Counted from the stretch's first letter, positions 3,584-45,766 are shown. The stretch: DNA of 64,000 nt from Heptranchias perlo (GCF_035084215.1 NC_090365.1:9176001-9240000), one strand, 5' to 3'. Notes: generated from the sequence alone by a model not told the origin. A program made the numbers and translations.

Positions 3584-4225
3584 CTACTTCAATTCCTTGA
3601 TTTTATCCTCGACCGATTCCCTGCTGTCGTCCAGGATCTCGGCCACCTTCTTCCCCATCTTGTAGAACTGGAAGGTGGGGATGTGGATGATGTCGCAGGC
3701 CTCCGCCGTGTCTTCCGAATCGTCCACGTTCACTTCGTAGAAAATCACCAGGTTGTGGAGCTGGGCGATCTCGCTCATAATTGGCTTCAAGTCCTGGCAC
3801 GTCTCGCACCAGTTGCCCGAGAAGAAGATGACCACCAGCCGTTCGCCCGCCTCTTTGATGAACTTGTCGAACTCGCTCATGCTGCTGATGCTTCTCAGCG
3901 GCACGCCGTCCCCGGGCAGCTCCTGCGGCGTCCCGCTCCCTCCCTGCGCCTTGTCCGGGGTCTTCGACTCCTTCGGCGGCTTGCCCTTTTCCTGCGGCGG
4001 CTCGGCGGCCCTGGCCCGGCTCGGCTCGGAGGCCCTGGCCCGGCTCGGCTCCGAGGCCTTGGCCCGGCCCGGCTCCGAGGCCTTGGCTTGCGACCGTCCG
4101 GCTTTCCCGTGGGAAGGCCCCACCTCGCCCGGCGCCTGGGACGGCGCGGCCTTGTCGGCCGTCGGCTGAGCGCTCTTTCCCTGCGCCTTCTTGGGCTTTC
4201 CCAGCGTACTTCCCGCCCCCGCCAT
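3584..4225 (-). CDS. Thioredoxin-like protein 1 of the cluster: low-complexity/repeat N-terminal extension plus a Trx domain with WCETC motif; single exon
   Basis: 213-aa ATG ORF. The C-terminal ~105 aa align to vertebrate TXN (LVVIFFSGNWCETC...EVNVDD...IPTFQFYK). GC-rich codons. AATAAA at 3568-3573 just after the stop. Confidence 0.9.
   Translation of the reverse strand: MAGAGSTLGKPKKAQGKSAQPTADKAAPSQAPGEVGPSHGKAGRSQAKASEPGRAKASEPSRARASEPSRARAAEPPQEKGKPPKESKTPDKAQGGSGTPQELPGDGVPLRSISSMSEFDKFIKEAGERLVVIFFSGNWCETCQDLKPIMSEIAQLHNLVIFYEVNVDDSEDTAEACDIIHIPTFQFYKMGKKVAEILDDSRESVEDKIKELK
3992..4087 (-). repeat. Four 24-bp coding repeats (AKASEPGR, AKASEPSR, ARASEPSR, ARAAEPPQ)
   Basis: Visible in both the DNA and the translation. 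Confidence 0.85.
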
Positions 4226-5060
4226 GTGCTCGGCCCCTCTCTGACACGTGGCTCCGAGGCCCTTCCGCCCCCTGCACCGTAGACACGCCCACTCATTGTG
4301 ACATCACCCCCCCTCAAGCCCCGCCCAGCCTGAAAAAAGGGGGCAGTTGAGCGCGCCGCCTCATTTATCCGCCAATCGGAATGAGCTGACAATTCAAACA
4401 GGCGCGCAATTAAAGACTATTTCCCATTAACAAGGTTTAATTTTCGCGCTGCCGCCGCTGAGAGCCAATCACGTTTTTTATTATAAAAAAGAAACAGGCG
4501 CGGCCACCTAATGGCCTTAGTGATTGGTTAATAATACTGTCCAATCAATGCCGAACCAGCTCTGACTGACAGGGGAATAGACCTATCATGACCCACCAAC
4601 GTAATCGGCCGCTTTTGATTGGACCATATTGGATGATGTTCAGCCAATAGGGGACGGAGGGCCGGTCCTCTCGGTGTGGGGGGTGTCGAGGTTGAACGGA
4701 TTGAGGCGAAGGGTCCCGGGCCGGTGTGACCCTGGCCTGGACGGAGCTGCCAAAGCTCGGGGAGGGTGTGTGACCGTTTTTATGTTGGACCGTGAGCGGG
4801 TGACGGGCGGGCAGCCAGCACCCGGCCATAGGGTCCGAGGCCCGCGGTCGCGCGCGCGCTCAACACCCTAACGGCAGCAGCGCGAGAGCGGGAATCAGCC
4901 CCGGCCGCCGGGAGCATGCGCAGTCCAGCCCGTTTCTCAAAGTGGGGGCGGGGCGAGATGGTGACGTGTGATTGGAACTCTCGGTTAGAGAACACGCCCT
5001 CTCTCTCCGTGACGTAATTTGATCTCCATGGTTACGGTATTAATACGGAAGAAGGTAAGA
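4226..5060. promoter_or_regulatory. CpG-island promoter upstream of Trx-like gene 1
   Basis: CRE-like TGACATCA at 4299-4306, GC boxes, at least six CCAAT/ATTGG boxes between 4372 and 4650, NRF1-like GCATGCGCA near 4914, and X-box-like ATCTCCATGGTTAC at 5022-5035. Confidence 0.7.
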
Positions 5061-5189
5061 GGGGAGAATGCAGTGGTGGAGCAGGCACCAGGGGAATCAG
5101 CATCACCCAGGTTGAAAAGAACTGGAGGGAGGATGAGGTAACTCAGGAAATGGGAATCCAGGAATTTCACCATGTTAATCCAAACAAAA

Positions 5190-6005
5190 TGGATTGGCAG
5201 ATGAAATTTAATGAAGTGTGAAGTGATGCATTTTGGAAGAAGATGCAATATAAACAAAATGGTACAATTTTAAAGGGGGTGCAGGAACAGAGAGACCTGG
5301 GGGTTCATATACACTAATCTTTCATGGTGGCAGAACAAGTTGATAAAGCTGTTAAAAAAGCATACAGGATCCTTGGCTTTATAAATAGAGGCATAGAGTA
5401 CAAAAACAAGGAAGTTATGGTAAACTACTATAGTGCCTTTAATTATAGTAATCTTTATAAATCATTGGTTAGACCTTAGCTAGAGTATTAGACACCACGC
5501 TTTAGGAAGGATGTGAAGACCTTAGAGAGGGTGCAGAGTAGATTTACCAGTATGATCCAGGGATGAGAGACTTCAGTTATGTGGAGAAGCTGGGATTGCT
5601 CTTCTTAAAGCAGAGAAGGCTAAGGGGAGATTTAATAGAGATATTCAAAATTAAGAGGGGTTTTGATAAGAGTGGATAGGGAGAAATTATTTCCACTGGC
5701 AGTCGGGTCGGTAACCAGAGAATACAGATTTAAAATAGTTGCCAAAAAAGCCAGGGGGGGAGCACAAGGAGATTTTTTTTTTACGCAGCAAGTTGTTATC
5801 TGAAATGCACTACCTGAAAGGAAGCAGATTCAATAGTAAATTTCAAAAGGGAAAAATTTGCAGGGCTATGGGGAAAGAGCAGGGGAGTGGGACTAATTGG
5901 ATAGCTCTTTCAAAGAGCAGGGGAGTGGGACTAATTGGATAGCTCTTTCAAAGAGCTGGCACAGGCACGATGGGCTGAATGGCCGCCATCTGTGCTGTAT
6001 GGTTC
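5190..6005 (+). mobile_element. CR1 LINE 3' fragment (RT C-terminus and 3' UTR), degenerate
   Basis: Homologous to the 3' part of the CR1 at 51830-52630. Contains a short internal duplication of gggagtgggactaattggatagctctttcaaagagc. Confidence 0.8.
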
Positions 6006-8699
6006 TGTGAAAATATGGGCTGTGCTAACTTGTAGAAAATACGGGTATTGAGTGGGGTTGCCAACTCTGGACGTATTCCAGAAGGTTTCATCACCTGTCT
6101 AACCGCCCCCACCTCCAAGCTTCCACCATTGGTCGCCTGACACGACAATCCTCGTAGCACATCACTTTCCCAAGCCAATTGGAAAGCCAAAAGACTTTGT
6201 CACCTGATTGGATGATTCTTGACTATCAGTCAAAGAGCCTGTTTTCCCCCTCTGATTTTTTTTTAATGCCTCTATTATTTTTCTACCTTGCTGAAGTGTC
6301 CAGGACGTGAATCTTTAATTGATGGAATCTCCAGGCCAATCCGGAAGGGTTGGCAACCCTAGCTGTGAGTATTCAGTCCTGTGATAGTGCCCTTGTTTGG
6401 TGTGTATTTGTAAATAGAGCACTCTGCAAGAGTTTAGCAGGTGGGTATGTATTGGCGGTATCTTTGGTGTAATGCCACTGACAGATCATTGTGTCATAAT
6501 ATGTAAAATAATAATGAATTACTGGCTTAATAGGAACAAGATTTGGCTCAGTGGTAGAATTCCCACCTCTAAGTCAGAAGGTGCAGGGTTCGAACCTCAC
6601 TCCAGACAATCCTGATGAGTGGAGACCGGAGCTCCGGTCCTGAATTCTGGGTTGACATCCAGCGGGATACTCGTGTCCGTTGGGTGTGGCAGAGGCTTTT
6701 AGGGAGGGAATTCTTGAGAGTGGGACTAGGTGGCTAAAGGCATGGCTGCCAATGGTGAGGCTAAAGGGGTCAATGTAAAGAGGCCAGTCAGGAATGAAGA
6801 GTGGGGGAAGAGGAGTTGTAGGGCTATAGGAGGTTACAGAGATAAAGAGGGGAGAAACCACGGAGGGATTTAAATACAAGGATGGAAATTTTAAATTTGA
6901 GGGTTTGGAGGGGTCAACGTGGGTTAGGGAGGATGGGTGAGCGGGATGGTGCCAGATATATGGGCAGCAGAGCTCTCCTTGCTACAAATAATCTCCTCCT
7001 AGTTCTTCATTAAGGGTTCTGTTGTAGTAGTCTTGCCTGCTCCTAATTGCAAGGGCCACTCTGCTTACTTCAAATGTATGGGTGAGAAGTTTCCACGAGC
7101 ATGCTCAGTGTTCAAAGCAAGTCAGTCTTGTCTTGTTAAGTGTGATTTCTTGTGGTTTCCAGCCCATTCTTTGGGTGTTTATGGTCCAGCTGCCTGATCT
7201 CTTTCTTCAGCTGAGATCACCCAACCTCTGCACAATCAAGGGACCAAACCTGCGACCAGGATAGCTCACCAGACTTCATCACAAGCATTGGGGAACCACG
7301 GCTGAGTGCAGCCCTGATTTTATCAGTCTTGCAGAATTGAGGCTGAGACCAGCCAAGCAAATTTATCCTGATTAGATTCTGATTACAGGCAGTAACGTCA
7401 ATAGTGGCTGGACACCTGGACTCAAAACTAATAGCTATCTCTAGACAGTTTTGTACATTGTTTGTTTTTATCTCCTTTTGCACAAATGACAAAGGAACTC
7501 TTTACAGTTAATCAAAGGCGATCCTTAAAACACATTACCCACTGTAACAAGCTGATACATGCCCAGGACCCGGTGATCAATTAGACACGCAGACTAGATC
7601 TTCAAACAAGTGAGATTTATTCACCCATGTTGTGTCTTTACTTGCAGTGATAAACGATGGTGATCAGTATTACTTTCCCACCTACCTCTTATCCCTCTCA
7701 GTTCCTTCCTCTCCGAACACCAACAGAACCATTAAGGTCAATGATTTCTTAAAGCTATACCGCCGTTTATTTACCTTCTTAAAGTTGTATCTCTATCTTG
7801 GATTCAGAGCTCTCAACATCCTATGGATTACATATCGTCCTTCTCTCACTCTGTTACTCTACCTAAAGTTATATAAATAAGATACAATACAAGAATTTTG
7901 TCTTCTTCCATTGTACACATGTCCCATCAGCCCACTCTGTTGTGCACCATCCATTCTAGGCTTTCACAACCTAATTGGAAACTCCCGCTCCCAGGATTAC
8001 TTGGGTTTGAATCTCTTTCCTGTTTTTAGGCTGTCGTTCCTAAAGAAAACAAAATTCTTTTTAAAATTAGAAAATGGTTATTTATATTATAAATGGAGAC
8101 CAGAATTGGGGATTTCCTCAAAGGCTCAGTCAGTGCACTGCTCGAGTGTGATACCGAGCAACATGGACCAGAAAGACCCCAGGTTCAGTCCCTGGTTCGT
8201 CTTGAGTTCACCTCATCCATTTGCTCGGAAGAAAATATCATAGAACATTTACAGCACTGAAGGAGGCCATTTGGCCCCTTGTGCCTTGCTAGCTCTTTAC
8301 TAGAGCAATCAAAAGCAAATCACGCTGCCCTGCTTGCTCCCTATAGCCATATTTTAATTATATGATGCAATGGTCTCCACCACAAGTACTATTTATAAAA
8401 CCCAAATGCTATTGCACTATTTATGGTTTTATCTACCTGCACTCTCACTCCCAAGGGAATATGTATCTGCACCCAAGGTGTTACAAGGCTGCAATTTAGT
8501 TCCATCACCTGCACAGTGCTAGATCTTACATTGGTGATCCGATCGTTGTCAGGCTAAGAGAATGGGCACACACAGGAGGCTGTGATCAACTGTCCCAAAG
8601 GTAAGGCTAGACTGGGGTAGCAATGTGAATGTAAGCAAACCATCAGAATTCAGTAGAGCTCCCTTCCTTCTTGCACCTGGACACAACAAATGTGTCTGC

Positions 8700-8967
8700 A
8701 CTGTGGCAGATTTTATGCCCAATAATTTAAGATGATTAGCAAAAGAACGTGGGGTGAGATGAGATTTTTTTTTCCTCAGTGTGTTGTTATGATCTGAAAG
8801 GGCAGTGGAAGTAGATTCACTACTAACTTTCAAAAGGGAACTGGATAAATACTTGATGAGGAAAAATTTGCAGGGCCATGAGGGGGTACGAATTGGATTG
8901 CTCTTTCAAAGAGCTGGCACAGGCTCGATGGGCCGAATGGCGGCCTCCTGTGCTGTAAGATGCTATG
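8700..8967 (+). mobile_element. CR1 LINE 3' end fragment
   Basis: Shares the terminal motif gctctttcaaagagctggcacaggc...ggccgaatgg...tgtgctgta. Confidence 0.7.
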
Positions 8968-9032
8968 CAATGCAACCATTAGCAGGACAGGTACTTTTTT
9001 TTTTATTATTCTTTGTCTGAAACACGTGAGAA

Positions 9033-9353
9033 TTACTTCAGCTGCATAATCAGACGGTCCAGCTTTTCCCTCTTGGTCCCGGAGAACTCCCCGATCTTCT
9101 CCTGGCACCTGTAGAAGTGAAATGTGGGCATGCAGGTGATGGCTGCAGCCCGGGCCAGCTCCTCCGATTCATCCACGTCCACCTCCACGAAGATGATGTC
9201 GCGGTGCTGGTCGGACCGCATCCGGAGGAAGGGCTTGATGTTGGAGCAATTACTGCACCATCGGGCCGCGAAGAAGACGACGATCAGGGTCTCCTCCTCT
9301 TCTCGCAGTAAGGTATCGAACTGCCTCCGGGTCCTGATGGGTCTCAGTACCAT
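9033..9353 (-). CDS. Thioredoxin-like protein 2 of the cluster, WCSNC motif; single exon
   Basis: Intact Trx fold (LIVVFFAARWCSNC...EVDVDE...CMPTFHFY...GEFSG). The strong-Kozak ATG at 9353 gives 106 aa; an upstream in-frame ATG at 9401 would give 122 aa. AATAAA at 9002-9007. Confidence 0.9.
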   Translation of the reverse strand: MVLRPIRTRRQFDTLLREEEETLIVVFFAARWCSNCSNIKPFLRMRSDQHRDIIFVEVDVDESEELARAAAITCMPTFHFYRCQEKIGEFSGTKREKLDRLIMQLK

Positions 9354-9401
9354 CGTGTCGCGTCTTCTCCCACCTTGCGGTCTGTTCAGGCCAGCCCGCA
9401 T

Positions 9402-9776
9402 GTCTCACTTGTAGCCCCTCCCCGATAGTGACGTTACCCCGGCGTCATGGTAGCCCCGCCCACGACTCGCAATCAGCAACATCTGGTCAACTGAAAGAAC
9501 CCAGATGTTGAGCTTCTCCGGCAATGGGCAGCGACTTACCCCCTGGTTTAAGGTGTGAATGAGCCCCGGGTCAGAACCTGGCGTAACACGACTTGAGATA
9601 CAACTCCCAGAGATTCATCAATGAGTGAAACTTGCTGGCGGGAAGGCGGGTGATTGACAGCAGTCGGGACAAATCAGGAGCCGCCCTGTTCTGATTGGCT
9701 CAATGTTACCAGTTGACAGCCCAATGGCAAAGCGCAGATGCGCTTCTTGGTTGTCAGGCTGCGTTTGATTGGCAGG
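9402..9776 (-). promoter_or_regulatory. Promoter of Trx-like gene 2
   Basis: CRE-like TGACGTTA at 9429-9436, GC box near 9453-9461, ZNF143-like tacaactcccag near 9599-9610, and ATTGG boxes at 9694 and 9768. Confidence 0.6.
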
Positions 9777-9989
9777 ATGTGGAGATGCCGGTGATGGACA
9801 GGGGTTGACAATTGTAAACAATTTTACAACACCAAGTTATAGTCCAGCAATTTTATTTTAAATTCACAAGCTTTCGGAGGCTTCCCCCTTCACATCGTTC
9901 ACCTGACGAAGGGGGAAGCCTCCGAAAGCTTGTGAATTTAAAATAAAATTGCTGGACTATAACTTGGTGTTGTAAAATTGTTTACAATT
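9777..9989. mobile_element. Short palindromic Penelope-like element with hammerhead motif
   Basis: Perfect 82-bp inverted repeat (9810-9891 / 9908-9989). Flanking direct repeat TTTGATTGGCAGG (9764-9776 / 9988-10000). Terminus gatgtggagatgccggtgatggac is shared with the GIY-YIG-bearing copies. Confidence 0.85.
9898..9936 (+). ncRNA. Minimal type I hammerhead ribozyme motif (Penelope pLTR type)
   Basis: ttcac-CTGACGA-stem II-GAAA-gctt-gtgaa. Both core boxes are present, stem I is ttcac/gtgaa, and stem III is the palindrome AGCT. Confidence 0.6.
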
Positions 9990-11929
9990 TGATTGGCAGG
10001 GAATTGGGGATTCCTGCATTTTAGGGCGTCATGTGGCAGTGCCCATTGGCGAGTCAAAGTTTGGCCCTGCAGCCACTTGCAACCTTAGTACAGGGCAAAC
10101 AGGAAATTGGCATCTCAGGACGTCAGGGTGTTCAAGAAGAATCTAAAGTTAAAATCAGGAGCACTCGTTAAATTCTATTAATGAATATTTTAAGCTGTGC
10201 AACAGCTTTACAGCAGTGATCTGCAGAAGTTTCAGATATGCCCACATTTACATGTTTAATGGTGTCCACAATGCAGACCTGGATGGGGTCACACGGTAGA
10301 TAAATTCTCCGCCAATACAAAGAATATTTGGAAATGCGCAGAAGACGTTAGCAGGTGTAAAGAGAAAAGACGGGATAATGTTTTCGGTGCGGGGTCCTCG
10401 GGTCGGGACTGGGGAAAAAAATGCTCCTTTTTATAGAGCTGAACGGAACAAGGGTGGGGGTGGGAGAGCAGAAAAAGGTATCAGGAAGGCTGACCCGAGT
10501 CGCAAATAGACTGTGTTTACTGGTCTGCAAACGGGTGTTTTGAAGAGCAAAAGAGAGGTGAAAACTGGTGGATGATATCGGATCATCTCAATTAATCAAA
10601 GAAAATTCAATAAAACAAGAGGGTGTGAGTTAGGGGTGAAATGCATGAGAGAGATGCACAGAGGGGGAAAAAAAATCCCTCCCAAAATGGAGACATATAA
10701 AGTAGAAGGAGATTGGAAGAACAAGAAAGAAAATGGGGGAATTAAAAAAAAAACGGATATGTAACAGACCCGTCAGTACCCGAATGAGAGAAGTCACGCC
10801 AACTGTGTTCTGTTAAAAGGGTCCAACTAAAAAGTCAACTTTCCTCCCCTCCCCAGAGGCCAGTGGGCCCACCGTGTTTACCCAGCACACTGTGCTTCTG
10901 AGAAAATGGGTTAGCTCAGGTCACTGTTCAAACCAGTGGGCTCCAGAGTGCCCAAGAGAGAAGGGAATTGGAAAAATATTTGAAGGGGATTAAAATTGCA
11001 GGGCTATGGGGAAAGAGCAGGTGAGTGGGTCTAATTGGATAGCTCGTTCAAAGAGCTGGCACAGGCACTTGGGCTGAATGGCCTCCTTCTGTGCTGTAGG
11101 AGTCTATGATTCTATTCTTGAAGCTTGCATTGAGTTTTTTTTAAAAATAATTTTTGGGATGTGGGCAAGGCTGGCATTTATTGCAGTTGCCCTTTGAAGG
11201 TGGTGGTGATGCAACTGAGTCGCTTGCTAGGCCACTTAAGAGGGCAGTTAAAGAGTTAACCACATCAGTGTGAGACTGGAGTCACATATAGGCCAGACCA
11301 GGTAAGGACAGCAGGTTTCCTTCCCTAAAGGACATTACAACAATCCGACAGCTTCACGGTCACTTTTACAGACACCGTTTTTTGTTATTTCCAGAATTAT
11401 TCTCAAACTGAATTAAAATTATCAAACTGCCACGGTGGGATTTAAGATCACATTCTCTGGATTATTAGTCCAGGTTTCTGGTTACTACTTCAGTAACATA
11501 ACCACTACACTGCCATACTCATTACTAGTTACAATAGTGTAAGAGGCCAAAGGTAGCAAGAGGTCAGAGGGTGAAGTTGAAGTAACACAGGAAGTCCTAA
11601 TCTCACTTGCGGACAGAACTGAGGTATTAAGCAAAGGTCATCCAACCTGCATTTGGTCTCTTCACGAGGAGTCATTTCAGTATCCTAGATTTGAGGAAGT
11701 ACATGTAAATTGCAGTCTTGCTCACAAGGAGTGTTTTGAGACCCGAGACAACGGGGTGGGGAAGGGTGAATGAACAGATGTTGCATCTGCTGTGCTTGCA
11801 TGGGAAAGTGCCACTCGAAGTCATGGTGGTGGAAGAATAAACCAGGGAAGAAGGAACTGTCCCTCCAAAGAAGGGAGGGGATGATACGCTTGGTGGTGGG
11901 ATTATGTTGTAGATAACAGATAAAGAACA

Positions 11930-12445
11930 ACAACTTGAATTTATAAAGCGCCTTTAACATAGGAATATGTCCCACGGCTTTTTAGGAGCATAATGAGACA
12001 AAGATTAACACCGAGCCGAAGGAGATATTGGGAGGGGTAACAAAACTTGTTCAAAAGGGAGGGTTTTAAGGAGTGTCTTAGGGGAGAGAGGTGGAGATGC
12101 AAGGAATTCGAGAGCATGTGGCCTAGATGGCTGAAGGCACGGCCACCAATGGTGGGGCGAAGGAACTGGGGGTGTGTAAGAGGCCAGAATTGGAGGAGCA
12201 CGGAGATCTTGGACGGTTATAGGAGGGGGAGGTTACAGAGCTAGAGAGGGGTGAGGCCATGGAGGGATTGAACACAAGAAGTATTGGTGTATCGGGAGCC
12301 AATGTAGATGAATGAACACGGGGTGCTAGGTAAGCGGGACTTGTGGGATAGGATACGGGCAGCAGAGTTTTAGATGAGCTCATGTTATGGAGGGTGGAAG
12401 ATGGCAGGCCGGCCAGGAAATCAATGGAATAGTCAAGTTTGGAGG
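11930..12445 (-). mobile_element. L2-like LINE 3' fragment
   Basis: Degenerate ORF (RPTIGGRAFS...) and 3' tail shared with the other copies. Confidence 0.65.
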
Positions 12446-12914
12446 TAACAAAACTCTTCTAATCTATCGGGTTTTCTGCCATTTCCTCTCCCAATTTTCA
12501 AAACAATTATTAGTCCTTATGATTTTCATGGAAGGGAGAGTGGAGTTACAGAATTCAGATCAAAATTTAGCTACAAGCTTTAATTTTAGTCAGTATGGAT
12601 TTAATCAGTAATACATTGGAAAGGAACAAATAAGAGTAAGACAATAATAAAAACCCGTAAAATGTTTCATGAAGTATAATGTGAAAAAGTCCTCAGTACC
12701 TCTTCCCCCCCCCCAAACCCCCCACCCCCACCCCAGAAATCTGGCACACCAGTCTGTACATGATGCAGGCGATTGATGCTCCCCATCGATATGGTCTACT
12801 CCCTGTGCCAAATTGGGTTAAGTGCTGTATGTGATGTCTCTGGGTCTATGGGGTTTAAGCGTATTTTTGAATCCATGGGCGGGGGATTCAGATTTAACCT
12901 GAAGGAGGCTAATG

Positions 12915-13360: not shown

Positions 13361-14574
13361 AATGCACTGGAGTCAAATTTCCTCATTGTCATATGGGTTT
13401 GCAATTCGCCCGTGGGATAAGGGAGCCACTTTTAGCAGTGCCACCACTGTGCTCATAGATATCGCTTTCCCAAGAAACAAACTACAGAAGCACCAAAAGT
13501 AAATGAAAGCAGCTTTCCTCATTTACCAGGTTATCCCATTGCTTTCTCTTTAATGATATGATTCACACTATGCTTGCCCTCTCGTCTCCATCCTGCCTGT
13601 TATCCTACATTGTCCCTCCTGCTGTCCCTCAGACCCAGTACAGTAGCTCCATTGGATCAGTTATCCGCTGAAGATGCTACCTTATGATGGGCCATAGTTC
13701 CACCCGAACCCTCCAGTGATTTGCCCAAGTAGTCATTCATTTCTGAGCCTAAGTAGCGAGCGTCAGCGGGTTGATTGACCGAAGGGGACAACACGACAAA
13801 GTCTCATTCCTGTTCACACTGGGCTGGGCATTTACTAACTGAGCAAGCAGATTGTCTGAATTGATATTGTCATTAAAAGCAAGCTGACGTTTACTGTCGT
13901 GCTCCACATATTGATTTGCAGATTTGGGCAAATCCAACATCTGTGACTAAACTAACCTTCAGCTGGCAAGGAAGTCAACTAAGATTGATGAAAATATTTT
14001 AGACAATGTCCAACAAATACAAATAAAACGATTGGATGTTTCTGATGCTAATGATCACACAGGTTAGATCTCACACACACTATCACACAGAGACTTCGAA
14101 ACAGGTCATTGGAGGAGAAGGGAAGTACAGGGCTGGTTTGTGATGGGGTTAATCTCCATCTTGAGAGGCGATCCTTTGCCACTGGGTTTTCAAACTGGAG
14201 TCTGTCGATCCTAAGCGGGGTCTGTCAGGAAATATTACAATTAATGTCAGTCATAATTGCATAACACTCAGCACCACTGACCATATTGGGGAGGGAACCC
14301 ATTTATCCTGAGTGATATTCTACTTACCCAGTCACAGTTTGTGTGCAAGGCGTTTGTCTTTTAAGTGACGTCACACCCAGAACCAGAGGATCGGGACAGT
14401 TGCTGCTGGGTGTGCTTCATTTGCGTTTCTGGTTTGTGATGTACATGCCCCCCTCTCCCGTGCAGTTCTGTATTGTTGGAGGTGCGTTGCTTTGGACGAT
14501 TCGTTAAACTGAGTGTCTTTCTACCTGTTCCACTGCAGCGTGTCCTCCATCAAACAATAACAGTTTTAACCTTT

Positions 14575-17159: not shown

Positions 17160-17243
17160 AATAAAGCTGTTGGACTATAACCTGGTGTTGTAAGATTCCT
17201 TACATTTGTCCACCCCAGTCCATCACCGGCATCTCCACATCAT
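17160..17243 (+). mobile_element. Penelope-like terminal fragment
   Basis: Nearly identical to 26110-26193 (ttggactataacctggtgttgtaagattccttacatttgtccaccccagtccatcaccggcatctccacatca). Confidence 0.75.
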
Positions 17244-19793: not shown

Positions 19794-20032
19794 CAAAGCA
19801 ATGGGAAATCCTAAGGTCGTGAAAGGTACTATATAAATGCTAGCTTTTTCTTAATGTGTGAGAAATACAAGCCCCAATCCAAAATACTCGTGGATAAGCT
19901 TCCTTTTATAACCCACTAAGATCCCATATGCCACCCATAAACCACTGTGATTGACTCTTAACTGTCCTTTGAAGTGGCCGAGCAAGCCACTCAAATATAT
20001 CAAAACAGCCACAACTGTAGTGGTTCAAGAAG

Positions 20033-21153
20033 CCATGATGTGGAGATACCGGTGATGGACTGGGGTGGACAAATGTAAGGAATTTTACAACACCAGGTTA
20101 TAGTCCAACAGTTTTATTTGAAAATCACAAGCTTTCGGAGCTTTCGTCTTTCATCAGGTGTGTGAAGGTTTCCATCAAAGCACCGCATATATAGTCACAG
20201 CACAATGCCTGGTGATTACAGATAATCTTTCCAACTGCCTGTTATCACACCTCTGCATGGATGGTGTTCAGACAGGGGAACATTACACCTAAGACCATTG
20301 AATACGCAAGCGGTCAGATTACAAAGACAGAGAGAGAGAGAGAGAGACAAAGAATGGCCAGTTGTATTAAAAACAGATAACTTATTTCCCCCCCCCCCAG
20401 TGGGATTACATGTAGCGTGACATGAACCCAAGATCCCGGTTGAGACCGTCCTCATGGGTGCGGAACTTGGCTATCAATTTCTGCTCGATGATTTTGCGTT
20501 GTCGTGTGTCTCGAAGGCCGCCTTGGAGAACGCTTACCCGAAGATCGGAGGCTGAGTGTCCTTGACTGCTGAAGTGCTCCCCGACTGGGAGACAACGGAT
20601 GAACGGGCACCGCACAACAATCGCCAGACAGGAGGGTTCCCTACCAGTCGGGCAACACTTCAGCAGTCAAGGACACTCAGCCTCCGATCTTTGGGTAAGC
20701 GTTCTCCAAGGCGGCCTTCGAGACACACGACAACGCAAAATCATCGAGCAGAAATTGATAGCCAAGTTCCGCACCCATGAGGACGGCCTCAACCGGGATC
20801 TTGGGTTCATGTCACGCTACATGTAACCCCACCGGGGGAGGGGGGAAATAAGTTATCTGTTTTTAATACAACTGGCCATTCTTTGTCTCTCTCTCTCTGT
20901 CTTTGTAATCTGACCGCTTGCGTATTCAGTGGTCTTAGGTGTAATGTTCCCCTGTCTGAACACCATCCATGCAGAGGTGTGATAACAGGCAGTTGGAAAG
21001 ATTATCTGTAATCACCAGGCATTGTTCTGTGACTATATATGCGGTGCTTTTGATGGAAACCTTCACACACCTGACGAAGGACGAAAGCTCCGAAAGCTTG
21101 TGATTTTCAAATAAAACTGTTGGACTATAACCTGGTGTTGTAAGATTCCTTAC
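20033..21153. mobile_element. Penelope-like element in inverted (palindromic) arrangement
   Basis: Inverted arms of about 515 bp (about 20074-20591 / 20641-21154). Both encode a GIY-YIG endonuclease C-terminus (LPVG.HFS...EQKLI..F.T...GLN.D) and a hammerhead motif. 14-bp direct repeat AGTGGTTCAAGAAG at 20019-20032 and 21154-21167. Confidence 0.88.
21068..21102 (+). ncRNA. Minimal hammerhead ribozyme motif
   Basis: cac-CTGACGA-agga...ctcc-GAAA-gctt-gtg. A mirror copy lies on the minus strand at about 20126-20160. Confidence 0.55.
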
Positions 21154-21411
21154 AGTGGTTCAAGAAGGCGGTGGACCACCACCTTCTCAGGGCAGTAAAT
21201 GCCGACCGTGCTAGTGATGCTCACATCCTGAGAATGAATTTTAAAAACTGCCTCCCTTACTTTCTCTGGTTGGATTTTTTTTTTAGTTGCAGATTTATTT
21301 ATCCAGAGCAATCCTGCACAGGGCAGAAAATTCAGTCTCAATTAATTTTTTTTCCTTTTCGCTTTCCTCTCTATTTATCTTTTTTTTTTGCTTTAACTTC
21401 TAACAGGCCGC

Positions 21412-21729
21412 TCACTGCAGCTCGTCCAGTAGGTGCTCCAGCTTCTCCCTCTTGGTCCCCGAAAACTCTCCCATCTTGGTCTCCCGCTTGTAGAAGTGAA
21501 AGGTTGGCATGCAGGTGATGCCGGAGGACCGGGCCAGCGGCTCCGCGTCGTCCACGTCCACCTCCACGAAGACGATGTTGTTGAGCTGCTCGGAGAGGTT
21601 GTAGAAGTGCGGTCGGATCATCCGGCAGTTGCCGCACCATTCGGCCGAGAACATGATGACCACCAGCTTCTCCGTCTGGCTCAACAAGGTCTCGAACTGC
21701 TTGGCATCCCCCACGTGTTTCACCACCAT
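21412..21729 (-). CDS. Thioredoxin-like protein 3 of the cluster, WCGNC motif; single exon
   Basis: The strong-Kozak ATG at 21729 gives 105 aa, the length of canonical TXN. Sequence KLVVIMFSAEWCGNCRMIRP...EVDVDD...CMPTFHFYK...GEFSG. Upstream in-frame ATGs fall in promoter-like sequence. Confidence 0.92.
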   Translation of the reverse strand: MVVKHVGDAKQFETLLSQTEKLVVIMFSAEWCGNCRMIRPHFYNLSEQLNNIVFVEVDVDDAEPLARSSGITCMPTFHFYKRETKMGEFSGTKREKLEHLLDELQ

Positions 21730-21975
21730 GCTGCTTCCGGCTCCGTGCCCCGCCCACTGGGCCTCAGCCCCGCCCCCAATCCCCATAGTGACGAGTGTCG
21801 ACGTCAACCTCCTCCGCTCCCATTGGCTAATTCTCATTGGCCATTCCTGATCACACGATTGCTACTTTTTTTATGAATGAATGGGTGGCAAGCCCTCAGC
21901 TCCATTGGCCGGAATGTGGATGATTGACGGTGCAAGGAGCCTATCAGAAAGGCGTCCCTGTGCCCACCAATTGGT
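21730..21975 (-). promoter_or_regulatory. Promoter of Trx-like gene 3
   Basis: GC boxes near 21748-21777, TGACG at 21789, CGACGTCA at 21799-21806, and ATTGG at 21822 and 21836. Confidence 0.6.
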
Positions 21976-22189
21976 ATTTTTAAATTTCAAAATATATTTT
22001 ATTTCAAAAAAATTAAAAATACCACAATTCCAAAGCAATACAATGTGGATCGTAAACAATAAGATTCCAACATTACAATTTAAAACATAGTGTATATCAT
22101 ATATCTGTGCTGTATCTTTTCTATAGTTCTATATATCCATTTTTTCAGACAGCAAGTGCTGGTAATGGTTCTGCTGTTGCCATTTACAG

Positions 22190-22485
22190 CTACTCTAAAC
22201 GGATCTTTTGTTTCTTAACCTGTCCCATTACCACCCTTGTTTGCTTTGCACCATTATCCCTTTTGTCATTTAATCACCCTTTTGTCCTTTCCCCCCACCC
22301 TTCCCTGGCTCTGAACTTGCTTAAAAACTTTAACTCTTTAATATCTTCCAGTTCTGACAAAAGGTCTTCGACCTGAAACGTTAACTCTGTTTCTTTCTCC
22401 ACAGACGCACCCTCACTTGCTGAGCTTTTCCAGCATTTTCTGTTTTTATTTCAGATTTCCAGCATCCGCAGTATTTTGCTTTTGA
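22190..22485 (+). mobile_element. Second Penelope-like family fragment with degenerate hammerhead
   Basis: ctgacaaaaggtcttcgacctgaaacgttaac...tccagcattttctg. Related copies at about 26615-26720 and 40475-40645. Confidence 0.55.
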
Positions 22486-22499
22486 CATATCTTATAATG

Positions 22500-22722
22500 C
22501 ACGCAGTAAAATACAAGGTGGGATGGCCTTACACGGTGGCCTTTCCCCATACAGCCTTTGCGTAGGTCACACCCTGCCTCAGTGCATCCTGCAGCACGTA
22601 CTCCTGGACCTCGGAGTGTGCCAGTCGGCAACACTCGGTCGTGGACAGCTCCTTCAGCTGGAAGACCAGCAGGTTTCGGGCGGACCAAAGGGCCTCCTTC
22701 ACTGAGTTGATGGTCTTCCAGT
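22500..22722 (-). mobile_element. L1/Tx1-like LINE ORF2 C-terminal fragment
   Basis: WKTINSVKEALWSARNLLVFQ...ECCRLAHS; homologous to 24900-25105. Confidence 0.65.
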
Positions 22723-22809
22723 TGATCATACTGTTTGCCACCTCCGCATCCTATTCAATACTGAGCTGAGTTTCGGACTGATAGATAGAGGAATCCACGC
22801 CCTCCATAA

Positions 22810-23376
22810 GGGAAACGTGGCAGCCAATTTGCGCACAGCAAGGTCGCATAAGGCACAGCAGGGACTGGAGTGTATAGTTGACATCGGCAACAACATTATG
22901 ATTTAATTTGATAAGTTTCCTTTCTCTTTGGTATGATTTGGGTATTTATTGTTTGTGCCCCTCTAAAAAGGGGGCACTTTTGTTAGATTTCTATTATTTT
23001 GAGTTGATGACACTGAGACAACCCAGTGTCTCCCAACGGGTTTATTAAATAGAGGCAGGGTCCCAAAAACAGCAGTGAGATAATGACCAGACAATCTGGG
23101 GTTTTGTTCAGTTGTTGGTTGAGGGATAAATATTGGCCAGGACACCAGGGACAACTCCCCTGCTCTTCTTCGAATAGCACCGTGGGATCTTTTACGTTCA
23201 CCTGAGAGGGCAGACGGGGCATCGGTTTAACGTCTCATCCGAAAGACGGCACCTCCGACAATGCAGCACTCCCTCAGTACTGCACTGGAGTGTCCGCCTG
23301 GATTTTGTGCTCAAGTCTCTGGAGTGGAACTTGAACCCATGACCTTCTGACTCGGGCAAGAATGCTACCCACTGAG
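22810..23376 (-). mobile_element. Deu-domain tRNA SINE, interrupted
   Basis: Reverse-complement homology to the SINE at 14575. Confidence 0.65.
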
Positions 23377-23869
23377 GCATGGCCGGCAAAGTGGAAGGTG
23401 GAAGTATTGCTGCAGTCCTTATCAAATACAATATGCTACGTTTACATAACCGTGTTTGGAGTTTTGTCTGGGAAGAAGTTGAAGACCCCATTACCGAGCA
23501 CTTATGTGGTCTTCACATGGTGTATAAGTAGTAGAAGAGGCAGCTGGGATGGCTAGTCCTCTCTTGATGTGGGATGTGCCTGGCCTCTGTTCAGCCCCTC
23601 CCCACTCGGAAGGGCTGAGATCTGGAACTCAGCATGTCAGTGTGATCCAGGCCACACCAATCCATGATACCCTGATATATAGGCTCATTTTAATGTACTG
23701 TATTGTAGTGGGAATTTATAAAAAAACATTTTCATTGCAACATGGTTTATTTAACAATCATTTTTTTTTGTCAATGGTTTTGAAGAAAAAAAGACAGATT
23801 GGGTCAGACTATATTTTTGTTTCCTGAAAATGCACATTAACCACCCTCCAGTGCCTCACCCTAGCTCTC

Positions 23870-24255
23870 TTGCCTCTGAGTTTGCAGGTCGTGGGTTCAA
23901 GCTGCATTCCACAGACTTGAGCAAATAATCTAGGGCTGACCGTTCCGTGCAGTACTGAGGGGGTGCTGTCTTTTGGATAAGACATTAAACCGAGGCCCCG
24001 TCTGCCCTCTCAGGTGGACGTAAAAGATCCCATGGTAATATTTGAAGAAAAGCGGCATTCTCTCCGGTGTCCTGGCCAATATTTATCCCTGAACCAACAT
24101 CATAAGACAGATTACCTGGTCATTGCTCTTTGTGGGAACTTGCTGTGCGCAAATTGGCTGCTCTGTTTCCTTACATTACAACAGTGACCACACTTCAAAA
24201 ATACCTCAGTGGACTGTGAAGTGCTTTGAGACATCCTGAGGATGTGAAAGGCATT
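23870..24255 (+). mobile_element. Deu-domain tRNA SINE
   Basis: Homology to the SINE at 14575. Confidence 0.7.
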
Positions 24256-24601
24256 TTCTAGCATGAGCCATTGGAAGACAGTAAGAGTGGAGAATACTGG
24301 TTGATATTTCCTCCCCCTGTAGCCCAGGGATACTGAGACAAGTTGCAGAAACCCAGCTGTTGCCTTGGCTGAAATCAGCTAGCTAAAGGCCCTTTCACAT
24401 TATGGCCCAGTGCAGTCAAGCTGATGGGAAAGTGACACCAACATGACTTCCCTACACTGATCTCTCATTTTTACATTTGTTGCCAGTCTGCCTCAGGCTA
24501 ATTGTGGAGGAAGATTCAACAGCAAACTGGGTGAGGAATGAATAAATTGGGTTTGCACTGTCACCTGTATAAGGTAGGTCAATGGATTTGCACATTGATT
24601 G

Positions 24602-25110
24602 GTTTTTTTTCAAAAAATATACTTTATTCATAAAATTTGCAGCAAAACATCCAATACAGTTGTCATATCACATTCCAAACGTACACAATACAGATTATAC
24701 AATTTGCAGGTTACATCAAGTACAGTTCAATGAACACATTGTACATAATTACAGTTCATGACACTCTGGGATGTCTCATTGCATTATACTCAATACAGAT
24801 TATTGATTACAGATTCATTACAGTTACATTACAGCAATTTGAATTTTACATTCTGCCCGGGGGGGTTTTTCCTTGATAGCAGCCCCTCGGTTTACAATGG
24901 CGGGAAGGCTCTAAACGGTTGCCTTTCCCCACAGAGCCTTTGCGGCGGCTGCACCCAGCCTCAGTGCGTCCCTGAGCACATATTCCTGGACCTTGGAATG
25001 TGCCAGTCTGCAACACTCGGTCGAGGACAGCTCCGTGCACTGGAAGACCAGCAGGTTTCGGGCAGCAAAGGGCGTCTTTCACCGAGTTAATGGTCTTCCA
25101 GCAGCAGTTA
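24602..25110 (-). mobile_element. L1/Tx1-like LINE 3' end with poly(A) remnant
   Basis: ORF2 C-terminus, 3' UTR, AATAAA and A tail on the minus strand. The same 3' UTR occurs on the plus strand at about 49295-49590. Confidence 0.7.
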
Positions 25111-25644
25111 CATCGATTGTTTGAGACCCATGTCTTAGTGAGCACTGCCTTAACCGAGTACTGACCAGGGTCAAACCTGGGATCTTCCTCATTCCCTTCA
25201 TGACCCTCCTTCTTCTGCCACATTCCTGGAAGCCTTCTCCACTTTGCCGGATTGTCTATGCTTCCCTCCCCTCTGCTGTGCTCTAACCATTCACACATAC
25301 TCTGGACCCATCTTTTGTTTCTCCAATTTCTCTCATTTTGTCTGGCACTATAATCACTTCTGTCATTTAATCATCTCCTGCCCTCCACCCAATCATAGAC
25401 CTCTCCTTTTTTTTGCTTTTTCTGCCCCCCTTTTCTCCTTGGCTCGACACCTTGTGGAAATGCATGAAGGGATACTTGACCATATTAACTCTTTATTAAC
25501 TCACATAATAGGTTAGCTACAGCACACAGAGAAGCACAATTGTGTAATTACGTTTAAGCCTTGGTATGTTGATAATTAAGTTAGCTGAGCAGGTGTTCAG
25601 AACCTCTGGCCCCTCTAGCAGATAAGGGTATTGCTGACTACAAT

Positions 25645-26193
25645 GAGGGTTCCCTCCCAGTCAGGGAACACTTTAGCAGTCAAGGACATTCAGCCACCGA
25701 TCTTCGGGTAAGCGTTCTCCAAGGCGGCCTTCAAGACACACGACAACGCAAAATCGTCGAGCAGAAATTGATAGCCAAGTTCCGCACCCATGAGGACGGC
25801 CTCAACCGGGATCTTGGGTTCATGTCACGCTACACGTAACCCCACCAGCAAGGGGAAAAAAAAGTTATCTGTTTTTAATATTCTCTCTCTCTCTCTGCCA
25901 TTTGTGTCTCTTTCTCTCTGTCTGTCTAATTTGACACAATGTATATTCAGTGTACTGGGACGTACTGTTCTCCGTGGCTAATCTGTTTGAACACCAATGA
26001 CACCTTTTGATTGGTGTGATGGTGTCCCAGCCTAATATGATATGCGATTTGAGAACCTTTCACTCATTCACCTGACGAAGGGGATAATCTCCGAAAGCTT
26101 GTGATTTTAAAATAAATTTGTTGGACTATAACCTGGTGTTGTAAGATTCCTTACATTTGTCCACCCCAGTCCATCACCGGCATCTCCACATCA
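25645..26193 (+). mobile_element. 5'-truncated Penelope-like element with GIY-YIG C-terminus and hammerhead motif (about 26066-26104)
   Basis: Homologous to 20635-21153. Contains attcac-CTGACGA-...-GAAA-gctt-gtga and the complete terminus. Confidence 0.82.
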
Positions 26194-26844
26194 TTACAAA
26201 AATATAATGAGAATACAGTTTCTTGAAAGGCCATGTGGCCTTGAGACTGACTTCAGTCCAACTGATAACCAGGACAGAAATGTGGGGAGGATGGGAATGC
26301 TCAGGCCAGGTGCCAAAGTAATAAAGGGCTATGGACATTCGGCGGGTCAGGCTCACTACTTGATTGACCAACTACCTGAGCCAATAAAGAATGTATGTGT
26401 ACGCCCATATTCTGTGACAGGTGGGCGTTGTTACTGAGCTGTATAAACGTGAGCTGTTTCTTGAACTCAGCGAAGATGTCTTGAGGTGCTCTTCCACTTG
26501 TACAAGTAAAATAATAAATTCTCACTTGTTCTACTTGGTTTTGAGTGTTAATGCATTGTATAGAATAAGTAATATTAAGTTTCGACAACCTGCTTATAAG
26601 CTGTTCATCCTCCACTTCTGATGAAAGGCCATCGACCTGAAACGTTAACCCTACCTCCCTTTCTCCACGGAGCCTGCCTGTCATGTTAAATGTTTCCAGC
26701 ATTTTCTGTTTTTTATTTTACCTTCTTCGTGTCTCTGGTTCTAATCCACTGAGCAGGGCATTTACCCAACTGGGCATCACGTTTACTCACTGAGTTACTG
26801 GGGTCTCAGACTAAAATATATTTAAGAGGTCTTTTTACACATCA

Positions 26845-27178
26845 GGAACTCGCCAAGGCTTCTTCGAAACACCCCACAAACCTGCGACCTCTACCACCTA
26901 GAAGGACAAGGGCAGCAGGTTCATGGGAACACCATCACCTCCAAGTTCCCCTCCGAATCACACACTATCCTGACTTGGACATGTATCACCATTCCTTCAT
27001 TGTCACTGGATCAAAATCCTGGGACTCCCTATCTGACAGCATTGTGGAAGCACCTTCACCACACGGACTGCAGTGGTTCAAGAAGGAGGCCCATCACCGC
27101 CTCTCAAGGGACAACTAGAGATGGGCAATAAATGCCGCCCTTGCCAGCGATGCCCGTATCCCAAGAATTGATTTTTTA
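26845..27178 (+). mobile_element. LINE 3' fragment, same family as 1-392
   Basis: Direct homology. Confidence 0.65.
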
Positions 27179-27719
27179 AAAAGCACAGTGGTGTAATCAG
27201 CCCAGTGAGTTTTGTTACTGGGTCTGTGGTGAGAATGAAACTGTTTAACACAAATAACCACAGGTTTGATGTTTGTTACGCTGAATGTGCAATAGCGATT
27301 CCCAACTTAGGACAATAAAGATAAGGGCACCTATTGCAGGGAAACAGGGCACTTGTGCACAAACAAGCAGTTTGCAGTCACAAGTGTAAAGGGAGTAAAG
27401 GTTAGGCCATGCAGTTTGCTGAGACTCAGGTACAGAAAGGGTATTAATTATCAGAGCTGCTGATTTCTAATTTTCAATTGTGCAATTCGTCCCTAAAGCA
27501 CTGGTAAATAATGTAATAAAAATAAAATTTATCCTATGCAGTCATTACAAATCAATGATTCTGATCAGAGGGCTTGGAACCCTCAATGCTTGGCGAAACA
27601 TTATATAATTGACACAAAAATGCTACTGGTAAAAGCATTAATAAGCATCTATTTACATAATAGAGAGATCACCAGAAAACGAATGAATACAATGTGAGCT
27701 CCCCACATTCTACACCCTT

Positions 27720-28607
27720 CTATACAGCACCTTTTCAAGTTTCAGAGAAATTCACAGCAGCCAATTAGTGTACAATCAACATATAACTGAATGAGCAGTT
27801 AATCAGTTTTTGGGGGAATGTTGGCCAGGGCTCTTGGAGAATTCCCTATCTCTTCAAATAGTGTCACGGCATCTTTAAAATCCACCTGTACAGGCAGACG
27901 GAGCCCCAGTTTAACGTGTTATCTGAAGGACGGCTCCTCTAACAATGCAGCACCTCTTCAGTATTTCACTGAATTGTCCCCTTATGGTACGTGCTGAAGT
28001 CCCGGAGTGGATTTGAACCCGCTGACTCAGGGGGAAGAATGCTACCAACTGAGCCAAACTGACAGTTATACACCACAGATATAAACATTGCTGTACTGTG
28101 GCAGTCTGCAGGATCTGAATCTATTTATCCTGGGCCACCTCCACGATTTACTCAATGTGTGGTATTGGTTCAATTGTAGCATTTTCGCTTCTGAGTTAAA
28201 TTGTGGGTTCATGTCCCACTCCAGGAGTTTGAGCATATAATCTAAGTGGACACTCCCAGTGCAGTACTGAGGGAGTGCTGCACGGTCGGAGGTGCCGTCT
28301 TTCAGATGAGACGTTAAACCGAGCTCCCGTCTGGACGTGAAAGAGCCCATGGCACTATCTCGAAGAGGAGCAGGGGAGTTCTCCCTGGTGTCCTGGCCAA
28401 CATTTATCCCTCAACCAACATCACTAAAACAGATTTTATAGTTATTTATCTCATTGCTGTTTGTGGGAGCTTGCTGTGTGCAAATTGGCTGCCCCGTTTC
28501 CTACATTACAACAGTGACTGCACTTCAAAAAGAACTTCATTGGCTTTAAAGCACTTTGGGACATCCTGAGGTCATGAAAGGCACTATATAAATGCAAGTC
28601 TTTCTTT
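27720..28607. mobile_element. Two head-to-head Deu-domain SINEs (minus about 27720-28057, plus about 28170-28607)
   Basis: Homology to the SINE at 14575 in both orientations. Confidence 0.7.
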
Positions 28608-30021
28608 TATAGCAGTGGAACTGACACAACACCTTGTGCTTTGGAGTCACCTTGTGTAATGTCACCCCTTACAGGTACAAGATGCACAGTGAGTGCTCTG
28701 TTGCTGCCTGAAAGAACCCTAACCGTGCTGCTTTGAGAAACTCCAAATGGAGCACACACCCCTCCCAACATGGGAGGGAAAATCACTGCCATGCACCCTT
28801 GGTAGCTGACTGAAGAGTCAAATTGTGAGATGCCTGGGGTGTAGGTCCACCTTCTTGTCTGCAGGAGACATTGCCCTGTTGGCAAGGAGTAATGGAGAAT
28901 TGATAGCCTTACAGTAAACAGCTTTACAACAGGGTGTGGTGCAAATCCTTCAGCCCAGCATACCAATCAACTTTCTCCTTACCTCTGGCTATGGCACCCT
29001 CCCATCTCCTGAGATCAGTGACACTTGCTGGGGTATGGCTTCATAACACCCCTCAGTCTTCATACGTGAACCTAGACAGTGAGGGTCGGCAAATCTCACC
29101 TCCATTTTATAAACAATCCCTTTTAAATTCTTAAACACTCAGTTGGTCCAGCTCCATTTCAACTGTTGATCTGAGATGTAGACTAACATGGAGTCTCAAG
29201 CAGAAGAGGTGCATGAAAGCTGCCGGCTTTGTTGTAAAAACCCAAATAGCTAATGCCCTTCATTGAAGGGATCCTGCCACCCTGGCTCGTGACCATTCCC
29301 ACTTTACGTGATCAACTCAATGCCCTCTGACGTGGCCTTGGAAGGGATGGGCAATATATGCAATATTGCCAGTCTGACCCACATCCTGTGAGCAAATTAA
29401 TGGGAAAAAATAATCAACTCCTGGATCATACATCCATAAAGCCAATGGATGCTGCTACTCCAGTTTCCTGAGCCAATCAGCACCGTTTAGTGCCCTATCT
29501 CCACCTGGTGATCATCCTCGTGTATGAGATCAGTCAGTAAGTATAGACAGGCTGTTCCGCCACAAGCGGGCACCACATCCTAGTCTGACCCTGTCCTCAC
29601 CCCATCGTCCATACATTCAGTGGGAGGGGGGCGTCACTGGAGAGGGATCGGGAGCCGGAACGTTGGGTTTGTTTGCCCATTCCCTAGTGTGCCACCCTGA
29701 CCGTGATCAGCGCGGGCGATACAGAATGTGGATGGAGCCTGGTACCCCCCTCTGTCCCTTTCCGCATCGGCTGGCGCATTGAGAGGATTGGATTCCGCAC
29801 TTATTCGCCATTGGAGACGATGTCTTTCCAGGAGTTTGCCAGCCGGAGCTGCAGGTAGTGCACTGGGAGTGCCAGCCTAGATTTTATGCTCAAGGAGTGG
29901 GACTTGGACCCACAACCTTCTGACTCAGAGGCCAGACTGCTACCCCACTGAGCCAAGACTGACACCTTGACACAATAATAAGCAGCCACAAACGCCGGGC
30001 ATCAGTAGAAATCGGCTGGGT

Positions 30022-30375
30022 TTAATTTATAGGGGGCTGGCACGCCCCGCCCCCCTGTAGCTTCTGGATCATTCGCTCCAGGAGGCACCGGTTGGGCCCC
30101 TTGAACTGGAAGACCTTGGAGCCGGTCTTGTAGAACTGGAAGGTGGGGAACCACTGGATGCAGCAGCGCTGCACCACGTCCTGGGCCACGTTCACGTCCA
30201 CCTCGTAGAAGGCCACGGCCGGGTAGCGCTCGGCGAACTGGTCGAAGTACAGCTGGATCATCTGGCAGAACTCGCACCAGTTGGCGGAGAAGAGCAGGAC
30301 GACCAGTTGCTCGTCGCTGTCCCGCAGCGCCGCCTCGTACTCCGCCACGCAGCTGATGGTGGTCACCGCCCCCAT
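30022..30375 (-). CDS. Thioredoxin-like protein 4 of the cluster, WCEFC motif, cysteine-rich; single exon
   Basis: The first ATG (aggATGg) at 30375 gives 117 aa; the ORF-track start at 30429 is a GTG. Sequence QLVVLLFSANWCEFC...EVDVN...FPTFQFYK.G.KV..F.G.N. ATTAAA overlaps the stop codon. Confidence 0.9.
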   Translation of the reverse strand: MGAVTTISCVAEYEAALRDSDEQLVVLLFSANWCEFCQMIQLYFDQFAERYPAVAFYEVDVNVAQDVVQRCCIQWFPTFQFYKTGSKVFQFKGPNRCLLERMIQKLQGGGACQPPIN

Positions 30376-45765: not shown

Positions 45766-45766
45766 T

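Follow-up and report, generated by a model that had tools for sequence, protein, structure and literature searches.

Four intronless thioredoxin genes in tandem

We analysed a 64,000-nt stretch of the Heptranchias perlo genome (GCF_035084215.1 NC_090365.1:9176001-9240000), hereafter the window, in which a cluster of four thioredoxin (Trx) genes, T1 to T4, occupies positions 3584..30375. Six-frame and single translations of the window yielded four stop-free open reading frames (ORFs) on the minus strand, each with an uninterrupted Trx domain, and all four exceeded the cut-off of Pfam PF00085 (63-87 bits). This confirms the report of an earlier note on this DNA that four intact, co-oriented Trx ORFs with intronless coding sequences lie within 27 kb; the term single-exon applies here to the coding sequence only. 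The four genes are as follows.

4225-3584, minus strand: T1, 213 residues, active site WCETC, cis-Pro loop HIPTF (translation)
9353-9033, minus strand: T2, 106 residues, active site WCSNC (WCxNC class), cis-Pro loop CMPTF, F26 (translation)
21729-21412, minus strand: T3, 105 residues, active site WCGNC (WCxNC class), cis-Pro loop CMPTF, M26; sister of T2 (translation, tree)
30375-30022, minus strand: T4, 117 residues, active site WCEFC, cis-Pro loop WFPTF, L26; stop at 30022 (translation)

The T1 domain is acidic, with F26, E33, N58, D91 and D92 in human TXN numbering, and is preceded by a basic, low-complexity N-terminal arm of ~108 residues that is rich in Ala, Gly, Pro and Lys and contains a 24-nt repeat at 3998-4087. 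An AATAAA signal lies 26 nt 3' of the T2 stop codon. Within the domain the four proteins are 31-56% identical to each other and, in the window, only the T2/T3 pair of coding sequences can be aligned as DNA; the duplications are therefore old. The proportion of G and C at third codon positions (GC3) is 0.82-0.94. Neither the window nor the surrounding 264 kb yielded a fifth copy or a Trx remnant, nor did a genome search with T2 as query reveal further copies (4 matches among 11 candidates scored). When the genome was searched with PF00085 (41 matches among 76 candidates scored), just one more full-length domain without interruption came up, in a WCGHC PDI-type exon on contig C2. Two more WCxxC strings in the window (10260 and 49215) belong to short non-Trx frames.

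Active sites and residue conservation

Next, we compared 55 cluster sequences, entering the Callorhinchus record P0012 once, under T3, and excluding P0019, which represents the T3 gene itself. WCETC was present in all T1 orthologues (13/13) and WCEFC in all T4 orthologues (15/15). T2 orthologues carry WCNNC (10), WCSNC (2) or WCGNC (1), and T3 orthologues WCSNC (6), WCNNC (5), WCGNC, WCTNC or WCANC (1 each), with sawfish and skate having WCNNC in both genes. The conserved active-site classes are three, namely WCETC, WCEFC and a WCxNC class that unites T2 and T3 (x being N, S, G, T or A), and the difference between T2 and T3 in Heptranchias perlo is incidental. The earlier description of four different CXXC motifs holds in this genome but not across species, and the suggested panel of four distinct CXXC chemistries is not supported in that form.

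WCGPC occurs in none of the 55 sequences, and Trp31, both Cys and the cis-Pro loop xPTF occur in every one of them, so that what had been noticed in the four Heptranchias perlo proteins holds for the whole set. Furthermore, the buried Asp26 of TXN is missing throughout (0/55) and replaced by Phe, Met or Leu; it is retained in 13/13 TXN-type rows, in TXNb and in 5/6 TXNDC2-like rows. This common loss had been overlooked, as had the common promoter motif and the link to sperm described below. The available text of PMC3720550 gives an acidic residue at position 26 for ~92% of CGPC thioredoxins and describes it as essential to the catalytic efficiency of E. coli Trx, the proposed acid/base mechanism being debated.

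Upon closer examination, T4 has Leu for Pro40, has lost Asp60 and Asp61 and has gained Trp73-Phe74 and a conserved extra Cys95. T1 has Asp-Asp in place of Gly91-Ala92, as well as Glu33 and Asn58, and its domain bears a net charge of -7 to -10. The T1-type arm, found in 11 of the 13 T1 sequences (P0026 and P0030 are without it), ranges from 83 to 143 residues across orthologues and is conserved in its first residues. An AlphaFold model of the T1 domain (predicted local distance difference test, 92.9) matches human TXN 1ERV with a template modelling (TM) score of 0.94 and a root mean square deviation of 0.8 Å.

Orthologues across cartilaginous fishes

Close matches in three word-based protein searches came from cartilaginous fishes only. 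With T2/T3, 15 of 18 candidates matched; with T1 it was 14 of 20, made up of 11 T1-type sequences, T1 itself included, and three ordinary thioredoxins with CGPC; with T4 it was 7 of 9, all from elasmobranchs; further cluster members were added via protein-cluster look-ups. All four genes have orthologues in sharks and rays, with 63-89% identity and intact ORFs. In Callorhinchus we observed orthologues of T1 (60% identical) and T2 (77%), together with the T3-like record P0012, an apparent T3/T2 chimeric gene model that was excluded from the trees. T4 was not found there among the 9 candidates of the T4 protein search, which is word-limited and no proof of absence. Because the T1 and T2/T3 types are present in Callorhinchus, the cluster, or at least T1 and T2/T3, is judged from these sequences to be older than the split between chimaeras and elasmobranchs, which dates to ~400 million years ago.

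Gene order in the orthologues was inferred from locus tags and matching contig records. In Scyliorhinus torazame the consecutive locus tags scyTo_0016843-46 correspond to T1-T4 in order on one 102-kb scaffold, and in Amblyraja and Pristis all four genes are recorded on a contig of the same size within each species. Catshark entries for T2, T3 and T4 are XP_038642086, XP_038642018 and XP_038642163, respectively. The tandem arrangement and its long-term conservation are thus borne out, with orthologues in sharks, rays and, for T1 and T2, a chimaera, and with the order kept in the catshark. Among the best 150 entries of a profile search over 1.84 billion representatives, which were crowded by multi-domain proteins, there was no non-chondrichthyan member with these motifs, and the single-domain entries were cluster members and CGPC-type proteins that by resemblance belong with TXN, TXNDC2, TXNDC8 or TXNL1. 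Between the four paralogues dN was 0.35-0.73 and dS 0.54-0.80, and their ratio is uninformative because synonymous sites are saturated under a GC3 near 0.9.

Origin from TXN

The top PDB matches of the cluster profile are human TXN (E 1e-40), as is the top fold match, and the cluster domains are 40-51% identical to the genome's TXNc. On a contig separate from the cluster, three tandem multi-exon TXN genes (C4:118912765-118984141) carry WCGPC, WCMPC (the middle gene) and WCGPC; they keep Asp26 and have phase-0 introns inside the domain, which T1-T4 lack. Exon 1 and one exon 5 of these TXN genes were not located, and two of the genes are merged in the database model P0094. That intron-containing TXN lies on another contig, and that T1-T4 are without its domain introns, supports retroposition with later tandem duplication. 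We are confident, in line with the origin first suggested, that T1-T4 are functional TXN-derived retrogenes.

In a small tree T1, T2, T3 and T4 each formed their own starred clade, with T2 and T3 as sisters, and the four grouped against TXN at 93/83. Two broader trees, the second with four long rows dropped (P0033, P0205, P0197 and TXNb), split T1-T4. The approximately unbiased (AU) test did not reject their monophyly (p 0.31) or any other grouping tried (p 0.16-0.31), and the protein trees are too short to prove a single founder. A single founding retrocopy is plausible, and one founder copied with its promoter is favoured because the four genes lie at one locus in one orientation, have the same promoter motif and have all lost the introns and Asp26. 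The earlier note's single amplified retrocopy is backed by the small tree, not rejected by the AU test and not recovered in the broader trees; the phylogeny that it had asked for gave each gene its own clade.

Promoters

We found a motif resembling the cyclic AMP response element (CRE) at a similar distance upstream of each gene.

4299..4306, minus strand: CRE-like octamer with one mismatch and with GC boxes on both sides, preceding the T1 ATG by 81 nt; small CpG island
9429..9436, minus strand: CRE-like octamer with one mismatch and with a GC box on each side, preceding the T2 ATG by 83 nt
21799..21806, minus strand: CRE-like octamer with one mismatch, preceding the T3 ATG by 77 nt; CCAAT and GC boxes
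30434..30441, minus strand: CRE palindrome without mismatch, preceding the T4 ATG by 66 nt, then a GC box; edge of the 30-32 kb CpG island

The octamer thus lies at -66 to -83 in 4/4 genes; shuffled sequences had one anywhere in 200 nt in 64-132 of 2000 cases for each gene. Each of T1-T4 has its own small CpG island, and three of the four have CCAAT boxes within 200 nt. The composite of CRE and GC box occurs in three of the four promoters and at four other places in 264 kb.

Expression and the link to sperm

Table S2 in PMC11083954 lists 535 proteins for spermatozoa and 305 for seminal plasma. The T1 orthologue of S. torazame, A0A401PZS9, appears in the former sheet, at mean intensities of 3.4-4.8 x 10^5, and not in the latter; this proteome was searched against UniProt Chordata, and the table comes without peptide counts. 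None of the five cluster accessions checked occurs in a shark skin-mucus list (PMC10707392 supplement), which is shallow and our sole somatic control. No sequencing run with RNA on record was listed. Contigs of four runs guessed to be RNA (one sample, tissue unrecorded) were compared with a stretch that ended short of T4; they cover most of T1 and the sequence downstream of it at depth 3-11, and T2 9162-9367 is covered in one of the four; T3 was not among the listed contig pieces. Since non-coding stretches are covered at similar depth, the contigs were not used as proof of expression. One database model extends T3 by a further exon.

14149..14221, minus strand: alternative 3' coding exon of T3 in NCBI model P0019 'isoform X2', with a GT-AG join at the last T3 codon

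This splice model hints at T3 transcripts, and its join is absent among the joints listed for the contigs of the four runs. As to possible substrates, the available part of PMC2110730 reports that dogfish sperm nuclei disperse only with reduction, as human and bull nuclei do and unlike those of trout. Dogfish nuclei need a reductant, and disulfide-bonded sperm substrates therefore exist; that these are the targets of the cluster is a conjecture.

Neighbourhood and other features of the window

To the left of the cluster lies the BLVRB gene, whose last exon is ~5.7 kb away, and the right neighbour stands head to head with T4.

35865..36698, plus strand: SERTAD-family coding exon (PF06031, E 1e-15)

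Two SERTAD genes 45 kb apart (window 35865-36698 and L058:7494-8441), probably the SERTAD3/SERTAD1 pair, are followed by a MAP4K1-like gene, and the 30-32 kb CpG island may be common to the first of them and T4, as a bidirectional promoter. We take the BLVRB-SERTAD-MAP4K1 block to be that of human 19q13.2, where BLVRB and SERTAD3 are presumably adjacent with no thioredoxin in between. Head to head with BLVRB, a minus-strand open frame of 686 codons at C44:9156783-9158840 (L055:783-2840) ends in a C2H2 zinc finger. Also left of BLVRB are a peptidase S28 gene (PRSS16-like; C44:9109-9122 kb, L050-L051) and a probable DMAC2-like gene (L047-L049). In the bamboo shark BCKDHA lies seven locus tags from T1.

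Elsewhere in the window, a long terminal repeat (LTR) retroelement at 45136-50309 has two 632-bp repeats that are 95% identical and a gag-like ORF at 47065-47904, in which a CCHC knuckle and a DTG motif of protease type occur; the window ORF list holds no long pol ORF for it. Several reverse-transcriptase and endonuclease fragments of the long interspersed nuclear element (LINE) type lie on both strands at 50858-56226, and a 46-bp minisatellite at 58375-58856 has 10.5 copies with 96% matches.

Proposed function and alternative explanations

The explanation that we favour, with the chances about evenly poised, is that T1-T4 are male germ-cell thiol-disulfide oxidoreductases with narrowed substrates, which would be convergent with the mammalian sperm thioredoxins. 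A role in male germ cells gains likelihood because the T1 orthologue is present in the catshark sperm proteome. Under this proposal, before chimaeras and elasmobranchs diverged, an mRNA copy of TXN would have inserted next to the CpG island of SERTAD, acquired a promoter with CCAAT, CRE and GC boxes, and then duplicated in tandem along with that promoter. In the proteins, the exposed N-terminal Cys would attack protein disulfides or thiols, and resolution and recycling would be slowed by the absence of Gly-Pro and by that of Asp26, for which a role as acid/base towards the buried Cys has been proposed, so that each enzyme would serve particular substrates as an oxidase, isomerase or slow reductase and would not be a general reductase fed by thioredoxin reductase (TrxR). 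Three surfaces may select different targets, namely CETC with an acidic face, CxNC, and CEFC with aromatic residues; the basic arm of T1 could tether the protein to some structure of the sperm, and basic targets rich in Cys, e.g. sperm chromatin or tail proteins, would fit the acidic face of T1. The broader idea of an independent sperm Trx system that cartilaginous fishes have had for >400 million years, with three Asp26-less, non-CGPC kinds editing the disulfides of chromatin and tail, is tentative and on balance doubtful.

Several observations weigh against a germ-cell role of this kind. The S. torazame accessions of T2, T3 and T4 were not found in the catshark sperm list, nor were the prefixes of the bamboo-shark and chimaera orthologues, and the presence of T1 in sperm is not restriction to sperm. 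Given the low-depth contigs over T1, expression may extend beyond the testis. The CRE motif was selected once the sequences had been inspected, and CCAAT, CRE and GC boxes are frequent in the CpG promoters of housekeeping genes. The net charge of the T1 domain is just modestly below that of shark TXN (-5, -6), and to this list belong the splitting of T1-T4 in the broader trees and the tree and AU results on TXNDC2 given below.

We consider it unlikely that the cluster is a broadly or somatically expressed redox panel that tunes redox potential for general cell use, with T1 entering the sperm list as housekeeping proteins do. CpG-island promoters at all four genes would suit it, as would the distinct invariant motifs of T1 and T4 and the low-depth contigs over T1 in 4/4 runs and over part of T2 in one, yet those contigs are shallow and similar in depth to those over non-coding stretches, T2 and T3 form one motif class with a free first position, and the shallow skin-mucus list contains none of the five accessions. 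Somewhat less credible still is that some or all copies are non-catalytic, the CXXC binding a metal or cluster, or the fold serving as a redox-sensitive adaptor or structural sperm protein. The loss of Asp26 in all copies fits this, together with the Asp-Asp of T1 at Gly91-Ala92 and the residues lost (Pro40, Asp60, Asp61) and gained (Trp73-Phe74, Cys95) in T4. Trp31, both Cys and the cis-Pro are nevertheless invariant (55/55), and the cis-Pro probably disfavours the binding of a metal by CXXC. Moreover, other Trx subclasses without the Asp stay active, according to the available text of PMC3720550.

Kinship with TXNDC2 would remove convergence, the cluster and the mammalian gene being co-orthologues from one ancient jawed-vertebrate retrocopy. 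Several T1 orthologues are named 'thioredoxin domain-containing protein 2-like' by NCBI, the first Atlas feature match for T1 is TXNDC2 (0.92), T2 and T3 join TXNDC2-like rows at 85/84 and 97/88 in the broader trees, and the AU test rejects neither T1 with TXNDC2 (p 0.16) nor T1-4 with TXNDC2 (p 0.18). On the other hand, it does not reject TXNDC2 with mammalian TXN either (p 0.29), and the starred grouping places a shark clade 400 million years old inside a set of mammalian rows, a pattern suggestive of attraction; attraction is the probable cause of the joining of T2 and T3 with these rows. TXNDC2 also keeps WCGPC and Asp26, and neither the three word-based searches nor the best 150 of the profile search contained a close non-chondrichthyan relative. 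The cluster's neighbours make up, as we presume, the 19q13.2 block. TXNDC2 itself is placed on human 18p in the available text of PMC4453045, and in that of PMC11276731 it is reported from mammals only. Overall, such a common origin appears improbable. Finally, processed pseudogenes or recent neutral duplicates would likewise be intronless, and the exact T2 and T4 proteins are absent from the protein collection. Against this stand invariant motifs, the GC3 of 0.82-0.94, paralogues that are merely 31-56% identical, the listing of T1 as a protein in catshark sperm and, where the earlier note had proposed to look for disruption, intact orthologues in other sharks, rays and Callorhinchus, a series that effectively rules pseudogenes out.

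Significance

No paper describing the Trx cluster was found in the open-access literature (subscription papers were not covered), which agrees with the earlier note, whose author knew of no described vertebrate family of this kind. Databases label its genes just 'thioredoxin-like' or 'TXNDC2-like', and these labels hide the family. T1-T4 and their orthologues are an old, real, variant family of vertebrate thioredoxins, apparently an undescribed one. Cytosolic thioredoxins of vertebrates show almost no variation in WCGPC and Asp26, and here a vertebrate gene family has held other active sites unchanged over hundreds of millions of years, providing small soluble natural variants with which the roles of the XX dipeptide and of the buried Asp can be probed in the TXN scaffold. 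If the germline role is true, vertebrates would have recruited TXN retrocopies for sperm twice and independently, the second time in a lineage that fertilises internally and has reduction-resistant sperm nuclei; T1 would be convergent with TXNDC2 in its arm-plus-Trx design, and the proteins would be natural single-domain cytosolic thioredoxins with oxidase-like chemistry.

Comparison with known systems

The available part of PMC8189816, on human cytosolic Trx proteins, has no obvious counterpart of the cluster. With TXN (Trx1; PDB 1ERT/1ERV) the four proteins have in common the fold, Trp31, Cys32, Cys35, cis-Pro75-Thr-Phe and a domain of ~105 residues; they differ in having no domain introns, no Gly-Pro and no Asp26 and in lying at another locus, with T4 additionally without Pro40 and T1 with its 100-residue arm and Asp-Asp loop. 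TXNDC2 (Sptrx-1), which the available text of PMC2584115 describes as a TXN retrocopy with N-terminal repeats and that of PMC11276731 as sperm-specific, resembles T1 only, through an intronless TXN-derived domain behind a repetitive or low-complexity arm and through occurrence in sperm. In contrast to T1-T4, it keeps WCGPC and Asp26; its arm consists of 15-residue Pro/Lys/Glu repeats, whereas that of T1 is basic and Ala/Gly/Pro-rich, and it is a single gene on 18p, whereas the cluster has BLVRB, two SERTAD genes and a MAP4K1-like gene as neighbours. Orthology of T1 and TXNDC2 is unlikely. Separately, P0123 and P0151, WCGPC thioredoxins of sauropsid type, carry N-terminal arms that are acidic and rich in Glu, Pro and Ala, and may be a further independent case of the arm-plus-Trx design.

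TXNDC8 (Sptrx-3) and NME8 (Sptrx-2) are, like the cluster proteins, thioredoxins of the TXN fold, and are found in testis; both are multi-exon and of CGPC type. A closer parallel to the TXN-TXNDC8 pair than the cluster is the multi-exon TXN trio on contig C4, with its one WCMPC. In Drosophila, Deadhead and TrxT are germline-specific Trx paralogues, of which Deadhead is intronless and reduces protamine disulfides; both keep WCGPC and arose independently in insects. PDI and DsbA oxidases (CGHC, CPHC) are multi-domain and secretory, whereas T1-T4 are single-domain, have no His in the CXXC and show by eye no signal peptide or endoplasmic-reticulum retention motif. With these enzymes, in many domains of which the buried Asp is likewise absent, T1-T4 share a non-GP dipeptide, and the oxidase or isomerase role of PDI and DsbA is the one that we infer for the cluster.

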